Position numbers and translations under genes: made by a program
Assembly (NCBI GenBank): GCA_000437895.1
Contig: FR902159.1
Span: 20,487 to 37,961, forward strand
Source: Clostridium sp. CAG:914
GTDB lineage: Bacteria > Bacillota_I > Bacilli_A > RF39 > UBA660
DNA: 17,475 nt
Direction: 5' to 3'
In this document: positions 4,491 through 17,475 of the stretch, one piece after another
How positions within the stretch are numbered: position 1 is the first letter of the stretch
Layout: each line of letters begins with the position of its first letter
The notes under the pieces: generated by a model
The model's database searches: none
The model's input: the letters and a program-made list of their open reading frames with translations, nothing else
What the model was told of the DNA's origin: nothing

Positions 4491-5628
4491 GCTTACCTCC
4501 CAAATCAAGTTTCTTTATACACATATCAAATATTCTTAAAAATTCATCTACTTCCTCTTCAGTAGTCATATAAGACAAACTAATCCTTAAACTTTGATTA
4601 GACAAATATTCATCTTTAGTTAAAGCATATACACTATTTGACATACTATTAGAAGAAGAACAAGCACTCTTCGTAGATATATAAATAAAATTATCTGATA
4701 ATGCTCTAACCAATGTCTCAGGTTTAATATTTCTAACACTAAAATTTATAATATGTGGAATAGAATTACCAGTACTATTAATATGAACTAAAGAATATTT
4801 CTTAAGTTTATCTATAATTTTTCTATTTAATTTACTAACATAATTATAATTATCATCCACATTAGGAAACAATATTTCCATAGCTTTCATTAAAGAAACA
4901 ATAAGTGGCAAAGCAGGTGTTCCACCTCTAAAAGCAGTTGTACTTTTTCCCCCATGGATAAGAGGAACTATATTTATTTTTTCTTTTTTATATAATATTC
5001 CTATTCCCTTTGGAGCATATATCTTATGAGCAGACATACTAGCCAAATCAACACAAGACAAATCAACATCTACCTTACCTATAGCTTGAGTCATATCTAC
5101 ATGAAAGAAACACTTAGGATAATCTTTTAAAATATTAGCTATTTCTCTAATAGGTTGTTTTAATCCTATTTCACTATCTACCATAGTAATACTAACAAGA
5201 ATAGTATCATCCCTAAGTAATCTCTTTAAATCATCTAAATCAACCAATCCTTCATGAGTTATCTTAACAAAATCAACATCATAACCCTCACCAGCCAAAT
5301 AATTTAAAGGTCCTATTACAGAAGAATGTTCCAAAAAAGTAGTTATAATATGCTTACCCCTATTTTTATATTGCCAAGCTATCCCTTTTATAGCCATATT
5401 ATTAGATTCACTAGCCCCAGAAGTATATATTATTTCACTTGGTTTAACATTCAACATCCCAGCAATCTTAGCCGTAGCATAATCCTCTAATTCTTTTGAC
5501 TTAACCCCAAGAGAATGCAAAGAATTACTATTTCCAGGATAATTAACACATACATCATCAAATGTATCTAAAACCCTCTTATCAAGAGGAGTCGTAGCCG
5601 AATAATCTAAATAAATCATAAATATCAT
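4477..5628 (-). CDS. Cysteine desulfurase (class V aminotransferase, NifS/IscS-like)
   Basis: YLDYSATTP N-terminus, a SGASESNN block, the PLP-lysine motif SAHKIYAPKGIG, and the catalytic Cys loop STKSACSS. An alternative start at the ATG at 5619 (MIYLDYSATTP) is equally plausible. Confidence 0.85.
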   Translation of the reverse strand: MIFMIYLDYSATTPLDKRVLDTFDDVCVNYPGNSNSLHSLGVKSKELEDYATAKIAGMLNVKPSEIIYTSGASESNNMAIKGIAWQYKNRGKHIITTFLEHSSVIGPLNYLAGEGYDVDFVKITHEGLVDLDDLKRLLRDDTILVSITMVDSEIGLKQPIREIANILKDYPKCFFHVDMTQAIGKVDVDLSCVDLASMSAHKIYAPKGIGILYKKEKINIVPLIHGGKSTTAFRGGTPALPLIVSLMKAMEILFPNVDDNYNYVSKLNRKIIDKLKKYSLVHINSTGNSIPHIINFSVRNIKPETLVRALSDNFIYISTKSACSSSNSMSNSVYALTKDEYLSNQSLRISLSYMTTEEEVDEFLRIFDMCIKKLDLGGKHEDN

Positions 5629-6669: not shown

Positions 6670-7110
6670 ATGAACAATAATTATTATAATATACCTGTAG
6701 ATTGGTATAGTATGGACACTATTAATAGTTATGATAACATAATTAATGATAGATCTGGTAATTTATTAAGTCCAAAGGATGGTTTCTTAAAAGGAAATAT
6801 GTTTAATAACTTATATAGCAAATATAAAAACTATCCAATTAATGACTTAAATATCCAAAATAAAAGAGAAGAATTATTATATAATTATATGATGTATAAC
6901 TTTACTCTAACAGATTTAGGATTATATCTAGATAATTACCCTAATGATGTTAACGTTATTAACTTATATAACAATTACCTAAACGAATACTACAAAATAT
7001 TAAACGAATATGAAAGAAATTATGGACCATTAACAATCGATAGTCATTATCTAAATACAAGCCCTTGGACTTGGGATAATTCACCATGGCCATGGGAGGT
7101 GACTAAATAA
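6670..7110 (+). CDS. cotJB: Spore coat protein CotJB with an N-terminal CotJA-like extension (apparent CotJA-CotJB fusion)
   Basis: The C-terminal half, FTLTDLGLYLDNYPND...YERNYGPLT...SPWTWDNSPWPWEV, matches CotJB. The N-terminal half, LLSPKDGFLKGNMFNNLYSKYKNYP, resembles the CotJA core (sP.EAL.kGTLw..Ly..Y.nP). GGGAGG RBS. The stop overlaps the cotJC ATG. Confidence 0.75.
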   Translation: MNNNYYNIPVDWYSMDTINSYDNIINDRSGNLLSPKDGFLKGNMFNNLYSKYKNYPINDLNIQNKREELLYNYMMYNFTLTDLGLYLDNYPNDVNVINLYNNYLNEYYKILNEYERNYGPLTIDSHYLNTSPWTWDNSPWPWEVTK

Positions 7111-7667
7111 TGTGGAAATATGTTAAAAGTCTAGAATACCCTGTTAATATAAAAAAGAAAGATTTAAAAATGGCTAAATATCTAGTTACACAATATGGTG
7201 GTGCTAACGGAGAACTAGGAGCTGCCTTAAGATACTTAAATCAAAGATATACTATGCCAGATGAAAAAGGAAAAGCTCTACTTACCGATATCGGTACAGA
7301 AGAATTAGCCCATGTAGAAATAATATCAGCTATGGTATACCAATTATTAAAAGGAGCAACAAAAGAAGAATTAGAAAACGCTGGATTAGGTTCACATTAT
7401 ACTGAACATGGTAATGCCCTATATCCAACAGATTCAAATGGTGTTCCCTTTACCGTAGCTTACTTTGCCACAACAGGAGACCCACTCGCTGATTTATCTG
7501 AAGATATGGCTGCTGAAGAAAAAGCAAGAGCCACATATGAACACCTAATTACCCTAACTAATGATAAAGATATTATTGATGTATTGTTATTTTTAAGACA
7601 AAGAGAAATTATTCACTTTCAAAGATTTAAAGAATTATATGATGAATATAAGAAAAAAGGATACTAA
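7110..7667 (+). CDS. cotJC: Spore coat protein CotJC (manganese-catalase family)
   Basis: MWKYVKSLEYPVNIKKKDLKMAKYLVTQYGGANGELGAALRYLNQRYTMP and GTEELAHVEII are near-invariant CotJC and Mn-catalase di-metal ligand blocks. 185 aa. Confidence 0.9.
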   Translation: MWKYVKSLEYPVNIKKKDLKMAKYLVTQYGGANGELGAALRYLNQRYTMPDEKGKALLTDIGTEELAHVEIISAMVYQLLKGATKEELENAGLGSHYTEHGNALYPTDSNGVPFTVAYFATTGDPLADLSEDMAAEEKARATYEHLITLTNDKDIIDVLLFLRQREIIHFQRFKELYDEYKKKGY

Positions 7668-7713: not shown

Positions 7714-9861
7714 TTATTTTTCTTCACTTTTTTTATTCTTAAGAAGTAAATCTTTTCTAGATAAATTTAATTTACCCTTCCTATCATAGCCTGTTGCTAT
7801 AGCCACAATTTCATCTCCAACATTGACAACATCACTAACCTTCTCAACCCTATTAACATCCAATTGAGAAATATGAATTAATCCTTCACAACCAGGCCAC
7901 AATTCTACAAAAGCACCAAAGTCTTCTACTTTAACTACTTTACAAGTATATACCTTACCTATCTCAACTTCTTTTACAACTTGTTCTATTCTCTCTCTAG
8001 TCTTTCTAATAATTTCACTATCCGTATGATATATAATTACTCTACCATCATCTTCTAGATCAACCTTAACAGCATTTTTATCATTTACTGTCTTAACATT
8101 TGAACTTTCCAAAATAATCTTTGTAATCATTTCCCCACCACGTCCTATAACATCCTTAATCTTTTCAGGATCAATTCTAAACGTTTCTATCTTTGGAGCA
8201 TAAGGACTAAGTTCATGACGAGGTTCACTAATAGCACTTTCCATAACATCCAATATTTCCATTCTAGCTTTTTTAGCCTGAAGAAGTGCCTCAGATAATA
8301 TTTGTCTATTAACGCCCTTAATTTTTATATCCATTTGCATAGCACAAATGCCTTTTCTTGTACCAGCTACCTTAAAGTCCATATCACCCATATGATCTTC
8401 TAATCCTTGAATATCTGTTAATATAGTATATTTATCACCATCAGTAATAAGTCCCATTGCAATACCAGCAACCGGTGCCTTAATTGGAACACCAGCAGCC
8501 ATCAAACTCATACATCCAGCACAAATTGACGCTTGACTAGAAGAACCATTACTTTCCAATACTTCAGATACTACACGTACCGTATAAGGAAATTCTTCTT
8601 CTGAAGGCATAACTTGAAGTAATGCTCTTTCCCCCAAAGCACCATGTCCAATTTCTCTTCTACCAGGTGAACCATATCTACCAGTCTCACCCACTGAAAA
8701 AGCTGGAAAATTATAATGATGCATAAATCTTTTCTCTTCTTCAATACCAAGACCATCCAATATTTGATGTTCTCCCAAAGCTCCTAAAGTTGTAACAGAT
8801 AATACTTGTGTTTGTCCCCTTGTAAATAATGCACTACCATGAGTTCTTGCCAAAATATCTACAGAAGCAGATAAATCTCTAATTTCATCCATAGCCCTAC
8901 CATCAGGTCTAATTTTATCATTTATTATAAGTTTTCTAACTTCTTCACCCTCAATAGTATCCACCAATATCTTAACACTTTTAAGTATTGTTTCCAAATC
9001 TTCTGAATCACTATACTTTTCACTAAAATAATTAATCGTATCTTCCTTAACCTCATCTATTTTAGCATATTTTTCCAATTTATCTTTTATTTGAATAGCC
9101 ATAAGCATATTATTTCTAGCATAGTCACTTACTTCTTCACTTAGTGCATCATCAATATGAGCCAATTCAACCTCTATCTTTTCAACACCAATCTCACGAG
9201 TTATCTCTTCTTGGAATTGACATAATTCTTTAATTGCCTCATGTCCAAACATAATAGCTTCTATCATTAATTCTTCACTAACTTCTTTAGAACCAGATTC
9301 TACCATGTTAATAGCATCTTTAGTACCAGCAACATTTAATATCAAATCACAATCATCTATTAATTCAGCATCAGGATTTATTATAAATTCATTATTATAG
9401 TGACCCACAACCACTCCAGCCACCGGTCCCTCAAAAGGAATATTACTAATCATTAAAGCCAATGATGAACCAAATAAAGCTGTCATCTCAGGTGAACAAT
9501 CCTGATCAACAGACAAAACAGTACTAATTACTTGAACTTCATTTCTAAAACCTTCCGCAAACAAAGGTCTAATTGGTCTATCTATCAATCTAGCAGCCAA
9601 AATAGCCTGTTCAGTAGGTCTACCCTCTCTCTTTATAAAACCACCAGGTATTTTACCAACTGAATATAACTTTTCTTGATAATTTATTGTAAGTGGAAAA
9701 AAATCACCCGTCGTAGCATTTTTACTCATTACAGAAGCCGACAATATTGCCGTATCACCATATCTAACAAGAACTGCTCCAGCAGCTTGCTTAGCCAATT
9801 CTCCAGATTCTACAACTAATTTTCTTCCTCTAAAATCCAAATTAAATATTTTCTTTTCCAT
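7714..9861 (-). CDS. pnp: Polyribonucleotide nucleotidyltransferase (PNPase)
   Basis: 715 aa with two RNase PH domains ([26 protein letters not shown]), then KH (IGRGGEMI) and S1 ([20 protein letters not shown]) domains. Confidence 0.95.
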
Positions 9862-11400: not shown

Positions 11401-11750
11401 ATGTTATCCTATAAGCCACGTTCTGTACCTCTAAAAGAGGCGACAAACATTTATCTATGGTTTCCCATCCGTTTTATCATTCTTATTCTTCTAAAACAGT
11501 TCCCCTACCATTATTTGGGTTTCTCACTTGTGGGGTTTACCTCGTTTCATTCTATTCATTTCTAAATAGACTCGTCTCTGTGGCACTTTATATTCTTTTA
11601 ATCATAGAAATTCCTTAGACCAAAAGAATGCCGTTAGTCATAAGACTACCTTAGGTTATTTTTTCCCTAAGCACAAACACTACCATCATCACAGACAGTG
11701 TGAGCGTGGACTTTCCTCTATATCACTATAGCGTTTGTCCGGATAACAAT
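11401..11750 (-). ncRNA. rnpB: RNase P RNA, bacterial type B
   Basis: An ORF-free, relatively GC-rich stretch. Universal RNase P blocks on the minus strand: GAGGAAAGTCC (11718-11708), AAAGTGCCACAGAGACGAG (about 11589-11571), GGTAAACCCCACAAGTGAGAAACCCAAATAATGGTAGGGGAAC (11541-11499) and ACAGAACGTGGCTTAT (11426-11411). These are collinear with B. subtilis RNase P RNA. P1 pairs TGTTATCC (11748-11741) with GGATAACA (11409-11402). The ends are approximate, within about 5 nt. Confidence 0.9.
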
Positions 11751-13499: not shown

Positions 13500-13539
13500 A
13501 AATATCACATCCCATAAGTATTATATAACATTTCACATC

Positions 13540-13575
13540 AAAAAAAAAGTATATTCAAACTTAATTACTTATACT
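13540..13575 (-). terminator. Candidate terminator after the RT operon
   Basis: Minus-strand sense: AGTATA (13575-13570), a 16-nt loop, TATACT (13553-13548), then a T9 run (13548-13540). The stem is weak and AT-rich, but the U-tract is strong. Confidence 0.4.
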
Positions 13576-13633
13576 ATACATCATTAATCCCTTTAACAAT
13601 AATTCCAAATACCTATTATTTCTAATTCATCTA

Positions 13634-14671
13634 TTAAAACATAATATTTTCTATTTCTCTATATATCTTCTGATATATATGATAACTATTTGCATGCCTT
13701 ATATGTGAAGACCAACTATTAAAACTAAGCATCATCTTCTTCCTATCCAAACATCCCATATTATTATCTTTTTTCCATTTCTTAATTCTCTTTTTTATTT
13801 TTCTTTTACTACTATTTCTAATAAGTCTATACCCATCATATATCCTATAACCACAAAAATTAACTCCCATCTTTGAAGGATAATATCTACTTTTATTATT
13901 CAATTCTAATTTTAATTCCTTATTTAAAAACATCTTTATCTTTTCCATAACTATCCTACATTTTTCTTTCGTAGAAAGAAGAATTACCATATCATCCATA
14001 TATCTCACATAATACCTAACCTTAAGCACTTCCTTAACATATCTATCTAATATACTTAAATATATATTAGCAAAATATTGTGAAGTATAATTCCCTATCG
14101 GTATTCCCTTATCTATTTCATCATCATATATAAATATTTTAGTTAACCAAAGTATTTTTTTATCACTAACGAAACTATTCATTATCTTATATAATATATT
14201 TTTATCAATATTATAAAAATATTTCTTAATATCTAACTTAAGAACATAATATTTACCATATTTTCTTTTCATAATATTAATATATTTATCTACCATCAAA
14301 ACAGCATAATGAGTCCCCCTATTATCAATGCAAGCACAACAAGTATTAATTATTCTAGGTATAATATAAGGTTTTATAAATTCATAAATATACCATTGTT
14401 GTACTATTCTATCTCTATAAGGTAAACACTTAATAATTCTTTCTTTAGGTTCATATATTGTAAATACTTTATACTTACCAAGTCTATAACTACCATTCTT
14501 TAAACTATTCATAATTCCAACTATATTAGTCTCAATATCAACACTAAATTTAAGTAATTCATACCTATTAGTCTTATTTTTTTTAGCTCTATCATGTGAT
14601 CTAAGTAAAGATTCAAATGTTAACTTTTTATAAAAACAATTCTTTATACTTTTAGACATGACTTTATCCAT
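13634..14671 (-). CDS. DGR-type reverse transcriptase
   Basis: 345 aa, RT domain only, with no maturase, endonuclease or RNase H domain. Motifs: EPKERIIKCLPYRDRIVQQ (RT1/2), VLKLDIKKYFYNID (RT3), GIPIGNYTSQYFANIYL (the IGNxxSQ motif 4 characteristic of DGR RTs), YVRYMDDMVIL (YMDD box, as in Bordetella bRT), FCGYRI, and the C-terminal SWSSHIRHANSY. It overlaps avd by 28 nt. Confidence 0.85.
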   Translation of the reverse strand: MDKVMSKSIKNCFYKKLTFESLLRSHDRAKKNKTNRYELLKFSVDIETNIVGIMNSLKNGSYRLGKYKVFTIYEPKERIIKCLPYRDRIVQQWYIYEFIKPYIIPRIINTCCACIDNRGTHYAVLMVDKYINIMKRKYGKYYVLKLDIKKYFYNIDKNILYKIMNSFVSDKKILWLTKIFIYDDEIDKGIPIGNYTSQYFANIYLSILDRYVKEVLKVRYYVRYMDDMVILLSTKEKCRIVMEKIKMFLNKELKLELNNKSRYYPSKMGVNFCGYRIYDGYRLIRNSSKRKIKKRIKKWKKDNNMGCLDRKKMMLSFNSWSSHIRHANSYHIYQKIYREIENIMF

Positions 14672-15000
14672 CCACCAAGTAAATTCCCTATATTATATAT
14701 CTTCTTACTCCAAGCACTATAATTCTTACTATTAATATATTTCTTTTTATAAGATACCCTAATCATTACTTTTAACATCTTAAGTTCTACATCTATTTCA
14801 TTTAAAATAATTATTCTTTTATTCTTATTAAATTCCTTATTAGCAAGTATTATCTTTCTCATACCATTATAAGTAATTCTTTTTATCTCATCAACCATTG
14901 CTCCCTTTTCACTTTTCGGATACTTTAAAGTAATATTTTCCGTATAATATATCATCCCTAAATATTGTTTATATATCATTAATCCTTCTAACTCATTCAT
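14644..15000 (-). CDS. avd: Accessory variability determinant (Avd)-like four-helix-bundle protein
   Basis: 118 aa, very basic and predicted all-helical. KYPKSEKGAMVDEIKR, ELKMLKVMIRVSYKKKYIN and the C-terminal IGNLLGGWIKS fit the Avd / 'S23-IVS' four-helix-bundle pattern. It sits immediately upstream of the RT and overlaps it. Confidence 0.7.
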   Translation of the reverse strand: MNELEGLMIYKQYLGMIYYTENITLKYPKSEKGAMVDEIKRITYNGMRKIILANKEFNKNKRIIILNEIDVELKMLKVMIRVSYKKKYINSKNYSAWSKKIYNIGNLLGGWIKSCLKV

Positions 15001-15361
15001 TTAATAACTCCTTAAACTTATAAAGTATCTCTATCGCTTTTAACGGACTAATATTATCAATATCTATATCTTTAATCATCTTAATTATTTTATCATTTAT
15101 AACACCTCTATCATTATTATTTATTATCTCAACATCCAACTCTAAATTCTCAAATATTCCCATATATTTATCTATACTATTCTTAGGAAAACCACACTTT
15201 ACTATATTTTCATTTAATTTAGTAATTTTAAATGGTACATACTTACTTATCTTATAAGCATCATCATCGATAAATATATAAAACGTTCCACACTCAAATA
15301 AATAATATTTATTTTTATCAATATTCTTTTTTTCTAAATACTTCATATATAATTTACTCAC
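14993..15361 (-). CDS. MutS domain-I-like mini-protein (DGR accessory, MSL-type)
   Basis: 122 aa. YMKYLEKKNIDKNKYYLFECGTFYIFIDDDAYKISKYVPFKITKLNENIVKCGFPKNSIDKYMGIFENLELDVEI aligns by eye with the MutS N-terminal mismatch-binding domain ([45 protein letters not shown]...PMAGIPYHAVENYLAKLV). The C-terminal ISPLKAIEILYKFKELL resembles the MutS C-terminal TPxEAxxLLyeL helix. There is no ATPase domain. GTG start with GGAGG 6 nt upstream. The stop overlaps the avd ATG (ATGAATGA). Confidence 0.55.
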   Translation of the reverse strand: MSKLYMKYLEKKNIDKNKYYLFECGTFYIFIDDDAYKISKYVPFKITKLNENIVKCGFPKNSIDKYMGIFENLELDVEIINNNDRGVINDKIIKMIKDIDIDNISPLKAIEILYKFKELLNE

Positions 15362-15372
15362 ACTATGCCTCC

Positions 15373-15403
15373 AAAAAATAGCAGCACAAAAAAATTGTAC
15401 TGC
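15373..15403 (-). terminator. Terminator/attenuator-like hairpin immediately upstream of the msl-avd-RT ribosome-binding site
   Basis: Minus-strand sense: GCAGTAC (15403-15397), loop AATTTTTTT, GTGCTGC (15387-15381; 7 bp including one G-U pair), then TATTTTTT (15380-15373), which runs straight into GGAGG (15372-15368). Confidence 0.4.
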
Positions 15404-15523
15404 AAAAACTAATTTTGATAAACTCTCATTTTCACCATTTTACTACTCACGCGAATCTATCATTTTTTATGTGTATGTTCATCAACCATGAAAAGGAATA
15501 ATTTCTCTACGATAAAAACTAAT

Positions 15524-15543
15524 ATAATGTCCTTAAACATTAT
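15524..15543 (-). other. Small hairpin about 25 nt downstream of the target-gene stop and candidate VR
   Basis: ATAATGT / ACATTAT 7-bp inverted repeat with a 6-nt loop. On the minus strand it is followed by ATTAGTTTTTAT. It could be a weak terminator or a DGR-associated VR-flanking hairpin. Confidence 0.3.
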
Positions 15544-15567
15544 CCCCTAGCATAATATAATTATCTA

Positions 15568-17475
15568 TTATTGTAGTCTACCAACGACCAAAACCGAGCG
15601 GGCGGCACTATTGATGTTGGCACTACCGTTGTAGATGTCGAAGCTAAACGTGCCCGCACTAGAATCAGTGTTGTAGCCGCCGCCACGCAAGAACCACGGA
15701 TTACCAGCATAGACAAAGCTGGCACTATCATCATACCAATCACTTACTTCGGATAATCCATGTCCATAACATATCCCATCATTACACGCCGTTAGTGAAT
15801 TAGTTGCCGTATAATCATCATAATATTTACTATTAGGTTGGCTTGAGAAACCCGCATAATTACTTAATGAAGTTGCTCCCCACGTACTACCAGCTGGACT
15901 ATAATATCCCATAACATATTCCCAAGCACCACCAGACATATCATACACTCCAGTAATATTGCCTGTCGTACTAGATACTTTACTTATATCATGTGTACTA
16001 CTCTTCGTATTGGTATTATATTCTAGTAAATATCCATCCCAAGTATAAAAGCCATAATAAGTATTATATTGTGAGGTAGATGTTTGACTGGTATATACCG
16101 TATTAATTGCGGTACTTCCACCGACATTTCCGCCACTTCTTCCCGTATAATATCCAGATGAATTATTAATGTATATTTCTCGATTTGCTCCATATCTACT
16201 ATGAGATAAATATGCTACTGCTCCCCATTCACTATTCTTCATCATATGTGCATCGACATTACTAGTCATTCCGTATGTACTTGTCCCAAATCTTTGAGCA
16301 GTTGTAAATTCTGCTGATACTGTTTGGTTTCTAAGAGAACTGATATTGGGCATTATTAATGGAGCCGTAGCCGTTCCACCAGTTTCAAACTTTCCTACCC
16401 AAATACCATTTACTTCGGTATTACCAAATGTAAAGGCTGGATGAGTATAATAAGTATTAACTGCATCTCCCAAAGTTTTAGTTGTTGATTTATCTTCATA
16501 TATAATATCAATTTCTCTTGGACCTGTATAATTATATGAAGAAGAAATTTCCATCGTATATGTTATCTGATTATCTGAATTATTTTGATTATACATGTCA
16601 ATAAGTTGAGAAGTAGTCACTTCAATTCCAAGACTAGCATTTGAAAAAGTACCTGTTTGAAGGGCATTATTTACATCTGTCGTTGCTTCTTCCAATGTAT
16701 AACTAGTAAATCCAGCACTCTGGGCATAAGCATGCACCCAATTAATAAGTAATGTCTTATCACTATCACTTAATACATATATGTCAATAAGTTGAGAAGT
16801 AGACATTTCAATTCCAAGACTAGCATTTGAAAAAATACCTTTCTGAAGAGCATTATTTACATCTGTCGTTGCTTCTTCTAATGTATATGGACCTGAAACA
16901 AATCCTTGATTAATAGCATCTTGCACATAACTATACCACCAATTAATAAGTAATGTCTTATCACTATCACTTAATACATATACATAACATTCAGGATTTT
17001 CCTCATATGTTGGATTAGTTAATGTACTACATTTAACTTCTGGTATTCGGTATTTATACCTAGGTATCCATACATAATAAGCCAATATATCTTCTTCTGA
17101 TACTACAACTCCAGAAGTATTCTGATAAGTACTTCTAGAACTATCATTTACTAAAACCATATTAGCCCATTCCTTATTATTATAATTATACCAAGAAGCA
17201 TCATCTTCAGATACTGTTGAAGTTATTCCATTACTAGATATTACTACTGGTATCATTCCATCTTTAATATCTGGTTTACTTGCTGGAACATCATTCATAC
17301 AACTACCATTTAATGATAAACTAAATGACTGATTCATGGTTTCACTACTTGTCTCTTCAGCATCTAACCATATCCATAAATAATATGTCTCCGTAGCTGT
17401 CGCTGTATATTCTTTTGAAGTGAGTAAATTAACTTTATCACCAGTTATCTTTCCATTAAAATTACCAGAGCTTAC
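15568..17475 (-). CDS. DGR target (variable) protein with a C-terminal FGE-sulfatase / C-type-lectin-like domain; the 5' end runs off the right window edge
   Basis: The frame stays open for all 46 codons upstream of the track's ATG (17337) to the window end (VSSGNFNGKITGDKVNLL...), so the protein is longer than 635 aa. The C-terminal roughly 320 aa carry GIWVGKFE, MMKNSEWGAVAYL, GVYDMSGGAWEYV and WFLRGGGYN....ARSVLV. These correspond to the FGE-sulfatase-type fold used by many DGR variable proteins (DMxGNvWEW ... RGGSW ... GFR). Confidence 0.8.
   Translation of the reverse strand, partial: VSSGNFNGKITGDKVNLLTSKEYTATATETYYLWIWLDAEETSSETMNQSFSLSLNGSCMNDVPASKPDIKDGMIPVVISSNGITSTVSEDDASWYNYNNKEWANMVLVNDSSRSTYQNTSGVVVSEEDILAYYVWIPRYKYRIPEVKCSTLTNPTYEENPECYVYVLSDSDKTLLINWWYSYVQDAINQGFVSGPYTLEEATTDVNNALQKGIFSNASLGIEMSTSQLIDIYVLSDSDKTLLINWVHAYAQSAGFTSYTLEEATTDVNNALQTGTFSNASLGIEVTTSQLIDMYNQNNSDNQITYTMEISSSYNYTGPREIDIIYEDKSTTKTLGDAVNTYYTHPAFTFGNTEVNGIWVGKFETGGTATAPLIMPNISSLRNQTVSAEFTTAQRFGTSTYGMTSNVDAHMMKNSEWGAVAYLSHSRYGANREIYINNSSGYYTGRSGGNVGGSTAINTVYTSQTSTSQYNTYYGFYTWDGYLLEYNTNTKSSTHDISKVSSTTGNITGVYDMSGGAWEYVMGYYSPAGSTWGATSLSNYAGFSSQPNSKYYDDYTATNSLTACNDGICYGHGLSEVSDWYDDSASFVYAGNPWFLRGGGYNTDSSAGTFSFDIYNGSANINSAARSVLVVGRLQ
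15580..15744 (-). repeat. Candidate DGR variable repeat (VR) with a 3' GC-rich IMH-like block
   Basis: The last 55 sense codons before ...GRLQ* contain no codon ending in A. Sense-strand A is 30/165 and G+C is 85/165 by hand count, in a window that is otherwise about 30% G+C. The segment is rich in AAC/AAT/TAC/AGT/GAT-type codons (YNTDSS, FSFDIYNGSANINS). GCCGCCCGCTCGG (15606-15594) lies at the 3' end. No partner TR was seen in the window, so the repeat status is inferred rather than observed. Confidence 0.6.
16595..16981 (-). repeat. In-frame tandem duplication (186 bp + 201 bp) inside the target gene
   Basis: 16595-16780 and 16781-16981 share near-identical flanks (ATGTCAATAAGTTGAGAAGTAG... 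and ...ATTAATAAGTAATGTCTTATCACTATCACTTAATACATAT) around a divergent centre. The encoded units are YVLSDSDKTLLINW...TLEEATTDVNNALQ.G.FSNASLGIE..TSQLID. Confidence 0.9.

Follow-up and report, generated by a model that had tools for sequence, protein, structure and literature searches.

Where is the template repeat (TR) of a diversity-generating retroelement (DGR) that displays an intact reverse transcriptase (RT), an accessory gene avd and a variable repeat (VR), when no TR is seen among them? This question is raised by a stretch of 17,475 nucleotides of Clostridium sp. CAG:914 (GenBank assembly GCA_000437895.1, contig FR902159.1, positions 20,487 to 37,961), the whole of which is referred to here as the window. 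The window probably represents the distal (RT-proximal) unit of a tandemly duplicated DGR locus of the MSL type (with a small MutS-like gene, msl) in an uncultured low-GC species of human-gut Bacilli, the TR being located upstream, outside the window. In such a locus, a first target gene and its repeat (target 1, VR1) would precede those of the window (target 2, VR2). The elements concerned, listed from the right edge of the window, are the following, where Sp designates the post-TR spacer and IMH the initiation of mutagenic homology.

17042..17475, minus strand: piece of a ~870-nt exact repeat common to the N-terminal regions of targets 1 and 2; the window ends within this repeat.
15568..17475, minus strand: target gene 2, partial, with a frame open to the window edge and a stop codon at 15568.
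15580..15726, minus strand: VR2, DGR-diversified variable repeat of 147 nt, with adenine-biased differences from the species TR.
15580..15606, minus strand: 3' segment common to VR and TR (IMH-like, GCCGCCCGCTCGGTTTTGGTCGTTGGT), the same in every VR and TR of the conspecific contigs.
15362..15579, minus strand: Sp2, copy of the conserved post-TR spacer (DGR RNA 3' domain), which begins with AGACTACAATAA and so provides the target stop codon.
15371..15403, minus strand: terminator-like stem-loop GCAGTACAATTTTTTTGTGCTGC followed by a T-run, obtained by a pattern scan on the identical L117 sequence and mapped to the window.
14993..15361, minus strand: msl, DGR accessory gene similar to MutS domain I, 122 aa (PF01624 MutS_I, 36.6 bits for a cut-off of 20.6).
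14644..15000, minus strand: avd, DGR accessory protein of 118 aa (PF22296 bAvd, 74.7 bits for a cut-off of 40).
13634..14671, minus strand: intact DGR reverse transcriptase, 341 aa from 14659 or 345 aa from 14671.

The initial annotation had reported that no TR is detectable in the window, and the searches bear this out. An ungapped scan of both strands, tolerating mismatches at adenines of the partner, returned only background for VR2 (at most 32/60 identities and at most 59% at non-adenine positions). A gapped BLASTN of the window against itself (word size 7) gave no adenine-biased repeat pair, and a BLASTN of the species TR consensus against the window had the VR itself as sole match (15580-15724). 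The sensitive alignment that could have exposed a missed TR-like copy at 13509-15567 found none. The position between avd and the RT and the RT-obg spacer were considered as sites of the TR; neither holds one, and there is none there in any relative. The AT-richness attributed to the RT-obg and target-msl spacers was verified (GC 0.22-0.27), as was the overlap of avd with the RT, of 28 or 16 nt for an RT start at 14671 or 14659. The expectation of a TR between avd and the RT fails for this clade: in all close relatives too, avd and the RT overlap, and the TR is found between the target and msl.

These relatives were obtained from a scan of the GTDB species representatives with the RT, which gave four close relatives (L001-L004, 54-64% identity) and no identical genome. 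All four display an adenine-biased VR/TR pair (15-19 adenine mismatches and 0-2 others), where the TR is found ~190 nt past the VR and 230-290 nt before msl, with avd and the RT overlapping as in the window. Conspecific loci were recovered with the exact Avd protein, present in 1197 blocks of an assembly collection, mostly from human gut. The four closest relatives and ~11 conspecific contigs share the layout target-VR / hairpin and terminator / TR / ~220-nt Sp / msl / avd / RT. The gap between target and msl measures 544-620 nt in L001-L004 and 533 nt in the conspecific long forms, against 206 nt in the window. In the long forms (L081, L085, L087-L091, L103, L105 and L106), the VR is followed by ...GTTGGT TCTTAG, the hairpin GTGATGCGAAGCATCAC, a terminator-like stem, an adenine-rich TR of 147 nt and a spacer identical or almost identical to that of the window. 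Compared to them, exactly 327 nt are missing from the window, corresponding to the hairpin, the terminator and the TR body, and exactly these 327 nt are also missing from the short forms L083, L084, L086, L094, L098, L099, L101 and L102. The post-VR hairpin GTGATGCGAAGCATCAC is found nowhere in the window, a statement that concerns the VR of the window only, as VR1 in L116/L117 possesses it.

The 206-bp spacer of the window, described as AT-rich and without TR, is both; it is however not featureless, since it is a conserved element homologous to the post-TR spacer of the relatives. It is included in Sp2, which aligns with the post-TR, and not the post-VR, sequence of L001-L004 and of the conspecifics, and which is 100% identical to the spacer following the TR in L117. 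In the multiple alignment with the relatives, the VR of the window falls on their TR and the 206-nt spacer on their post-TR spacer. The motifs AGACTAC[A/T]ATA, ATAATGTTTAAGGACATTAT, TTTATCGTAGA and GTGAGTAGTAAAATGGTGAAAATGAGA are common to the window and the relatives, and RNAalifold detects in the spacer conserved helices with compensatory changes. In the DGR RNA, this spacer probably forms the domain for RT/Avd binding and priming. Rfam contains no family for it, RNase P being the sole Rfam match. The spacer is conserved (window 15362-15579, minus strand; L001 2178-2466, L002 9083-9310, L003 9063-9310, L004 636-876) even though the RTs are only 54-64% identical, and it contains invariant motifs, e.g. 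GTGAGTA.TAAA.TG..GAAAAT at window 15423-15450. At its 3' end, immediately before the ribosome-binding site of msl, sits the stem-loop 15371-15403; the TR-Sp RNA may be a discrete transcript, with an expression of msl, avd and the RT that relies on read-through.

On the evidence of its sequence, VR2 is a real, diversified VR, since 13 of its 14 differences from the canonical TR of the species are located at TR adenines. It abuts the spacer directly, the shared segment GCCGCCCGCTCGGTTTTGGTCGTTGGT being followed by AGACTACAATAA, and the crossover that fused VR2 to the post-TR spacer is placed within the segment of 27-31 nt that VR and TR have in common. The fusion alters the end of the protein, from ...VVGS* in the long form to ...VVGRLQ* in the short form. 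The same short junction is seen with at least four unrelated VR sequences; two further assemblies (L098 and L099) contain the VR of the window with 3 nt different and the same junction.

A simple deletion of the TR leaving an orphan cassette became the less likely reading in view of the tandem loci on L100, L116 and L117, where a TR lies upstream. On L100, a 166-kb contig of another lineage, the order is SHMT - target 1 with VR, hairpin and TR - spacer - msl' truncated at nt 215 - target 2 with a short-form end - spacer - msl - avd - RT; a TR can therefore sit upstream of a short-form target. The hypothetical truncated msl' of the window's own rare allele was used as query and matched two proteins (P0172 and P0196) on L116 (23.7 kb) and L117 (2.66 kb). 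These contigs display SHMT - target 1 (L091 type) - VR1 - hairpin - terminator - TR - spacer - msl' - ~90 nt - target start. Their msl' consists of msl nt 1-202, i.e. window 15160-15361, of which it is a second copy upstream, followed by AAAAATAA; the junction reads GATAAATATATGG|AAAAATAAATGTTTTGTAG (GATAAATATATGGAAAAATAAATGTTTTG). L117 has 100% identity to the window over the 420 nt of the spacer and msl nt 1-202, and again between its positions 2422-2663 and window 17475-17234. Two Logan contigs, of 5.3 and 3.5 kb and with 100% identity to the window, have their first base at msl nt 173; this is 203-30, the position predicted at k=31 for a fork where msl and msl' diverge at nt 203. Finally, target 1 of L116 agrees with the window from 17475 down to 17042 without a mismatch, the first one being found at 17041, so that the right end of the window falls inside the 870-nt repeat, as expected for a genome with two targets. 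The order of the units, itself inferred, is deduced from the joins present in the contigs: SHMT to target 1 in L116, target 1/TR to msl' in L116 and L117, and, in the window, its target body to avd, the RT and a complete msl. By extrapolation, the TR likely lies ~0.9-1.06 kb to the right of 17475, on the minus strand, at the window-equivalent positions 18391-18537. The proposal that the TR lies to the right of 17475 thus agrees with L116/L117, which put a TR upstream of the window's target; its cause is nevertheless a tandem duplication, and the TR belongs to the upstream unit, which has its own target.

The following history would account for these observations. An ancestral single unit would have been arranged as target-VR / DNA hairpin / terminator / TR / ~220-nt Sp / msl / avd / RT. 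Recombination within the 27-31 nt common to the 3' ends of VR and TR would have removed 327 nt, leaving the VR next to Sp. The full locus would now read SHMT - target1-VR1 - hairpin - terminator - TR - Sp - msl' (cut at nt 202) - target2-VR2 - Sp - msl - avd - RT - obg. According to established DGR biology, the TR-Sp RNA would be bound by RT/Avd and would be reverse-transcribed with misincorporation opposite adenines, and the cDNA would replace VR1, which retains the hairpin and matches the TR.

VR2 would have a different fate. Retrohoming copies TR information inward from the 3' boundary. Compared to the resident TR of L116/L117, VR2 displays 13 adenine-site differences and 4 non-adenine differences, and these four cluster in the final three codons preceding the shared segment, where VR1 agrees with the TR (diagnostic codons TGG TCC). 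VR2 appears not to have been rewritten by the resident TR, since the non-adenine mismatches are located at the 3' end, where this copying starts. With no hairpin behind it and with non-adenine mismatches to the resident TR, VR2 is most likely a retired VR whose rewriting has ended. In Bordetella, the hairpin downstream of the VR is needed for efficient homing (PMC3240598). An exact search of the JGI metagenomes for the VR of the window gave 0 matches.

Several points weigh against this interpretation. No one contig links the unique target body of the window, at 15727-17041, to msl', and the 242-nt overlap with L117 is not specific to one unit, because the ~870-nt exact repeat between the targets blocks short-read assemblies. 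The samples behind L116 and L117 are not that of the window. Downstream, L091 matches the window without a difference over 11.9 kb, yet it comprises one long-form unit only, whose spacer departs slightly from that of the window; the locus can therefore vary among closely related strains. Concerning VR2, deletion of the hairpin cut retrohoming 22-fold in E. coli, not to zero (bioRxiv 10.1101/2025.08.18.670894), and VR2 therefore need not be wholly inert.

The window could alternatively come from a genome with one short unit only (SHMT - target - VR - Sp - msl - avd - RT), where the TR was lost by VR x TR recombination and intact RT, Avd and MSL remain with no template and a frozen VR. Such losses do occur in the species: the other strains with a single short unit are truly devoid of TR, as seen in the 20-kb loci L083, L084 and L086, in L102, and in L094, an unbranched k=31 contig running from SHMT to msl. 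Moreover, L098 carries a window-type VR directly downstream of SHMT, and the sequence upstream of the target lies outside the window. The break in the Logan contigs identical to the window is nonetheless precisely where msl and msl' are predicted to diverge, L116 and L117 have the rare msl allele of the window as a truncated msl' beside a TR, and the end of the window within the 870-nt repeat is the break point expected of a two-target genome. We regard a single short unit as unlikely. The suggestion that the cassette had lost its TR while the VR kept its composition fits the unit of the window, where a deletion of 327 nt joins the VR to the spacer, and fits the genomes L083, L084, L086, L094 and L102; it probably does not extend to the source strain, whose TR is most likely upstream.

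It could also be proposed that VR2-Sp2 is a working second template: a coding VR now located before the RT-recruiting spacer, the RNA of which would be reverse-transcribed and would donate to VR2 itself, to VR1 or to TR slots. The arrangement of VR2 then Sp is indeed the same as that of TR then Sp. On the long form L108 (2255-2401), the TR slot is almost wholly the adenine-depleted VR of the window, and the own VR of L108 was templated by the canonical TR and not by the present one; the TR of L100 (4333-4477) has a canonical 5' end and a window-type 3' end, limited to the last ~15 variable nucleotides. In addition, one codon takes the forms AGC, GGC and GAC among the window, L098 and L108, all changes being at former adenine positions. 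If true, this reading would explain the adenine-depleted window sequence in the TR slots of L108 and L100, and would describe a natural DGR whose template and target are one DNA. However, plain homologous exchange of short- and long-form alleles, with different crossover points, accounts for L108 and L100. The remaining AAC/AAT codons are the same in all three copies, of the three differences between the window and L098 two fall outside adenines, VR1 of L117 derives from a canonical-type TR and not from VR2, and the short-form VRs are constant within lineages. A second template is therefore very improbable.

That the short junction is an assembly artefact, in which the assembler jumped from the shared 3' segment of the VR to the post-TR sequence and dropped a 327-nt loop, so that the real TR would lie between 15580 and 15579 and VR2 would run on into GTTGGTTCTTAGTGATGCGAAGCATCAC, is hardly credible: the 27-31 identical nucleotides and further identical stretches of VR and TR can confuse de Bruijn graphs, to which VR heterogeneity adds bubbles, but the same junction with the same VR occurs in independent samples and assemblers with k well above 31 (k141, k119 and SPAdes at 706x; one short-form lineage keeps its VR in MEGAHIT k141, SPAdes and scaffolded assemblies), the k=31 Logan contig L094 crosses it (SHMT-target-shared segment-spacer-msl) with no branch, as would not be expected if a TR and a post-VR branch existed, and the VR is constant in a short-form lineage (lineage d) across 5 proteins that otherwise differ (P0138-P0142).

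The tandem locus thus retained is one of several alleles, and VR diversity within the species tracks the joint presence of a TR and an intact RT. Among the long-form proteins with an intact RT, the VR differs in almost every one, whereas in the broken-RT lineage (L085 type) a single VR is found across 15 proteins. The identity of VRs across samples, considered as a proof of freezing, is weakened by one long-form protein (P0122) that occurs on 39 contigs. From msl to the thioredoxin gene (trx), the window and L091 show 0 nt differences over the 11.9 kb, whereas they differ by ~7% in the body of the target gene and at 4 spacer positions, which indicates a recombination boundary within the 3' end of the spacer. 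The DGR is decaying by several independent routes within the species. In six contigs (L082, L085, L089, L090, L096 and L097), the RT is split into two or three open reading frames (ORFs). On L082 (1-9600), a mobile element carrying a serine recombinase, a TraG-like coupling protein and a sortase takes the place of the target gene, the TR and most of the spacer. A related species, L003, possesses two complete tandem VR/TR units (4820-5274 and 8608-9062), each with its own TR; the duplication of a target-TR unit is therefore not unique to the species of the window.

Target 2 is probably a surface-type protein with a C-terminal variable domain of putative C-type-lectin/FGE-like type, and its C-terminus reads ...ARSVLVVGRLQ*. 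About 132 N-terminal codons (~396 nt) are located beyond the window, the missing start being supplied by L117; homologues in conspecifics comprise 600-705 aa. The similarity to PF03781 (FGE-sulfatase) is weak (21.5 bits, under the cut-off of 23.3), and some target homologues have a precomputed match to this family. The window's own target protein was not among the matches of the protein searches for target homologues. On L117 (2026-2120), to the right of the window edge, the target protein begins with MDKKKKIVGVLITLTIIFTVMGSTFAYLSW. More distant target homologues carry PF07963, the prepilin-type N-terminal methylation domain, so that the diversified protein may be a pilin-like or pseudopilin-like surface protein. 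The target gene also contains internal direct repeats (window 16591-16982, minus strand) that recur every ~186-201 nt (93% identity over 111 nt and 85% over 68 nt) and encode recurring 'YVLSDSDKTLLINW...TLEEATTDVNNALQ' modules; their copy number is strain-dependent, with fewer copies in the L083-type allele.

The identities proposed from the sequence for the RT, Avd and msl products are upheld by profile scores. The RT matches RVT_1 at 65.6 bits and is the same protein as the RT of L091; the 345-aa ORF contains IGNYTSQ and YMDD, which correspond to the DGR-type motif 4 [ILV]GxxxSQ and to the catalytic YxDD. With NF033474, Avd scores 72.7 bits, slightly under the cut-off of 80. Look-ups with the RT, msl and avd, aimed at the window's own contig, yielded L091 and fragments from Logan and nothing else. 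In minus-strand order, the genes are the target (open at the right edge), then after the 206-nt gap msl, avd, the RT and obg. The RNase P RNA of the initial annotation was recovered as class B at 11407-11746 (minus strand), a class indicative of Bacillota. The GC content is ~0.22-0.30 across the window and its rise to 0.40-0.45 is confined to 15450-15900. At 6670-7667 (plus strand), a CotJB-like gene is paired with a manganese-catalase (CotJC-like) gene, on the strand opposite to the DGR; this pair hints that the uncultured low-GC host forms spores.

The cassette of the window is an MSL-type DGR, i.e. Architecture D of Wu et al. 2018 (PMC5758913), where a small MutS-like gene and avd are present in the cassette; the DGR of Legionella is cited there as carrying an MSL gene. 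The RT with its DGR motif, avd and the small MutS-like gene, the C-terminal VR, probably of lectin type, and the adenine-specific diversification are all shared with this architecture. Unlike it, the locus is here probably duplicated, with two targets and two post-TR spacers for a single TR and with a truncated msl', and its RT-proximal VR is fused to the spacer with no hairpin after it. The DGR of the Bordetella phage BPP-1 (mtd-VR / avd / TR / brt) also combines RT, Avd and TR with a VR whose GC-rich 3' homology segment precedes a short hairpin, here present after VR1 (GTGATGCGAAGCATCAC). The TR is here upstream of the accessory genes and not between avd and the RT, the element is chromosomal and not phage-borne, and the 3' homology segment is identical in VR and TR whereas IMH and IMH* differ in BPP-1; the VR of the window also lacks the hairpin. 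The single-unit loci L001, L002 and L004 and the conspecific L087-L091 resemble the window in gene order, avd/RT overlap, spacer motifs and TR length, but they keep a TR in a longer target-msl gap, from which it is absent in the window's unit. Multi-target DGRs, where one TR serves several VRs, were also noted in Wu et al. 2018 (PMC5758913), and the proposed locus shares with them a single RT and TR with two target genes. Its second target, however, is the product of a rearrangement in which the hairpin was lost, and the mismatches of this target with the TR extend to non-adenine sites; it is therefore probably not serviced. The relative L003 has two complete VR/TR units instead. The literature search returned no account of natural DGRs with VR x TR deletion alleles, homologous recombination of VR with TR being mentioned only in laboratory notes; nor did it give a description of recurrent VR x TR fusion at the shared 3' segment, of a tandem locus in which two spacers and a truncated msl' accompany a single TR, or of a within-species allele series. 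The locus of the window is thus a rearranged variant of a known system and a useful natural experiment, with no new mechanism.

More than half of the candidate DGRs of GenBank are inactivated or incomplete (PMC5758913). For the annotation of such elements, a cassette in which RT, Avd and VR are intact and no TR is seen should not automatically be taken for a dead or exotic DGR: here the edge of the window most likely cuts a duplicated locus, in a clade where the typical position of the TR (target / TR / accessory genes / RT) departs from the textbook one. This abundant gut species offers a natural series of alleles, comprising a single unit with its TR, a tandem with one TR and two targets, a single unit with no TR, a broken RT, and a TR overwritten by VR-like sequence. 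It also supplies VRs with and without a downstream hairpin, with which the role of the hairpin could be tested in nature. The pattern of VR diversity among these alleles points to recombination between VR and TR at their shared 3' segment as a recurrent route by which a DGR is switched off or rewired.

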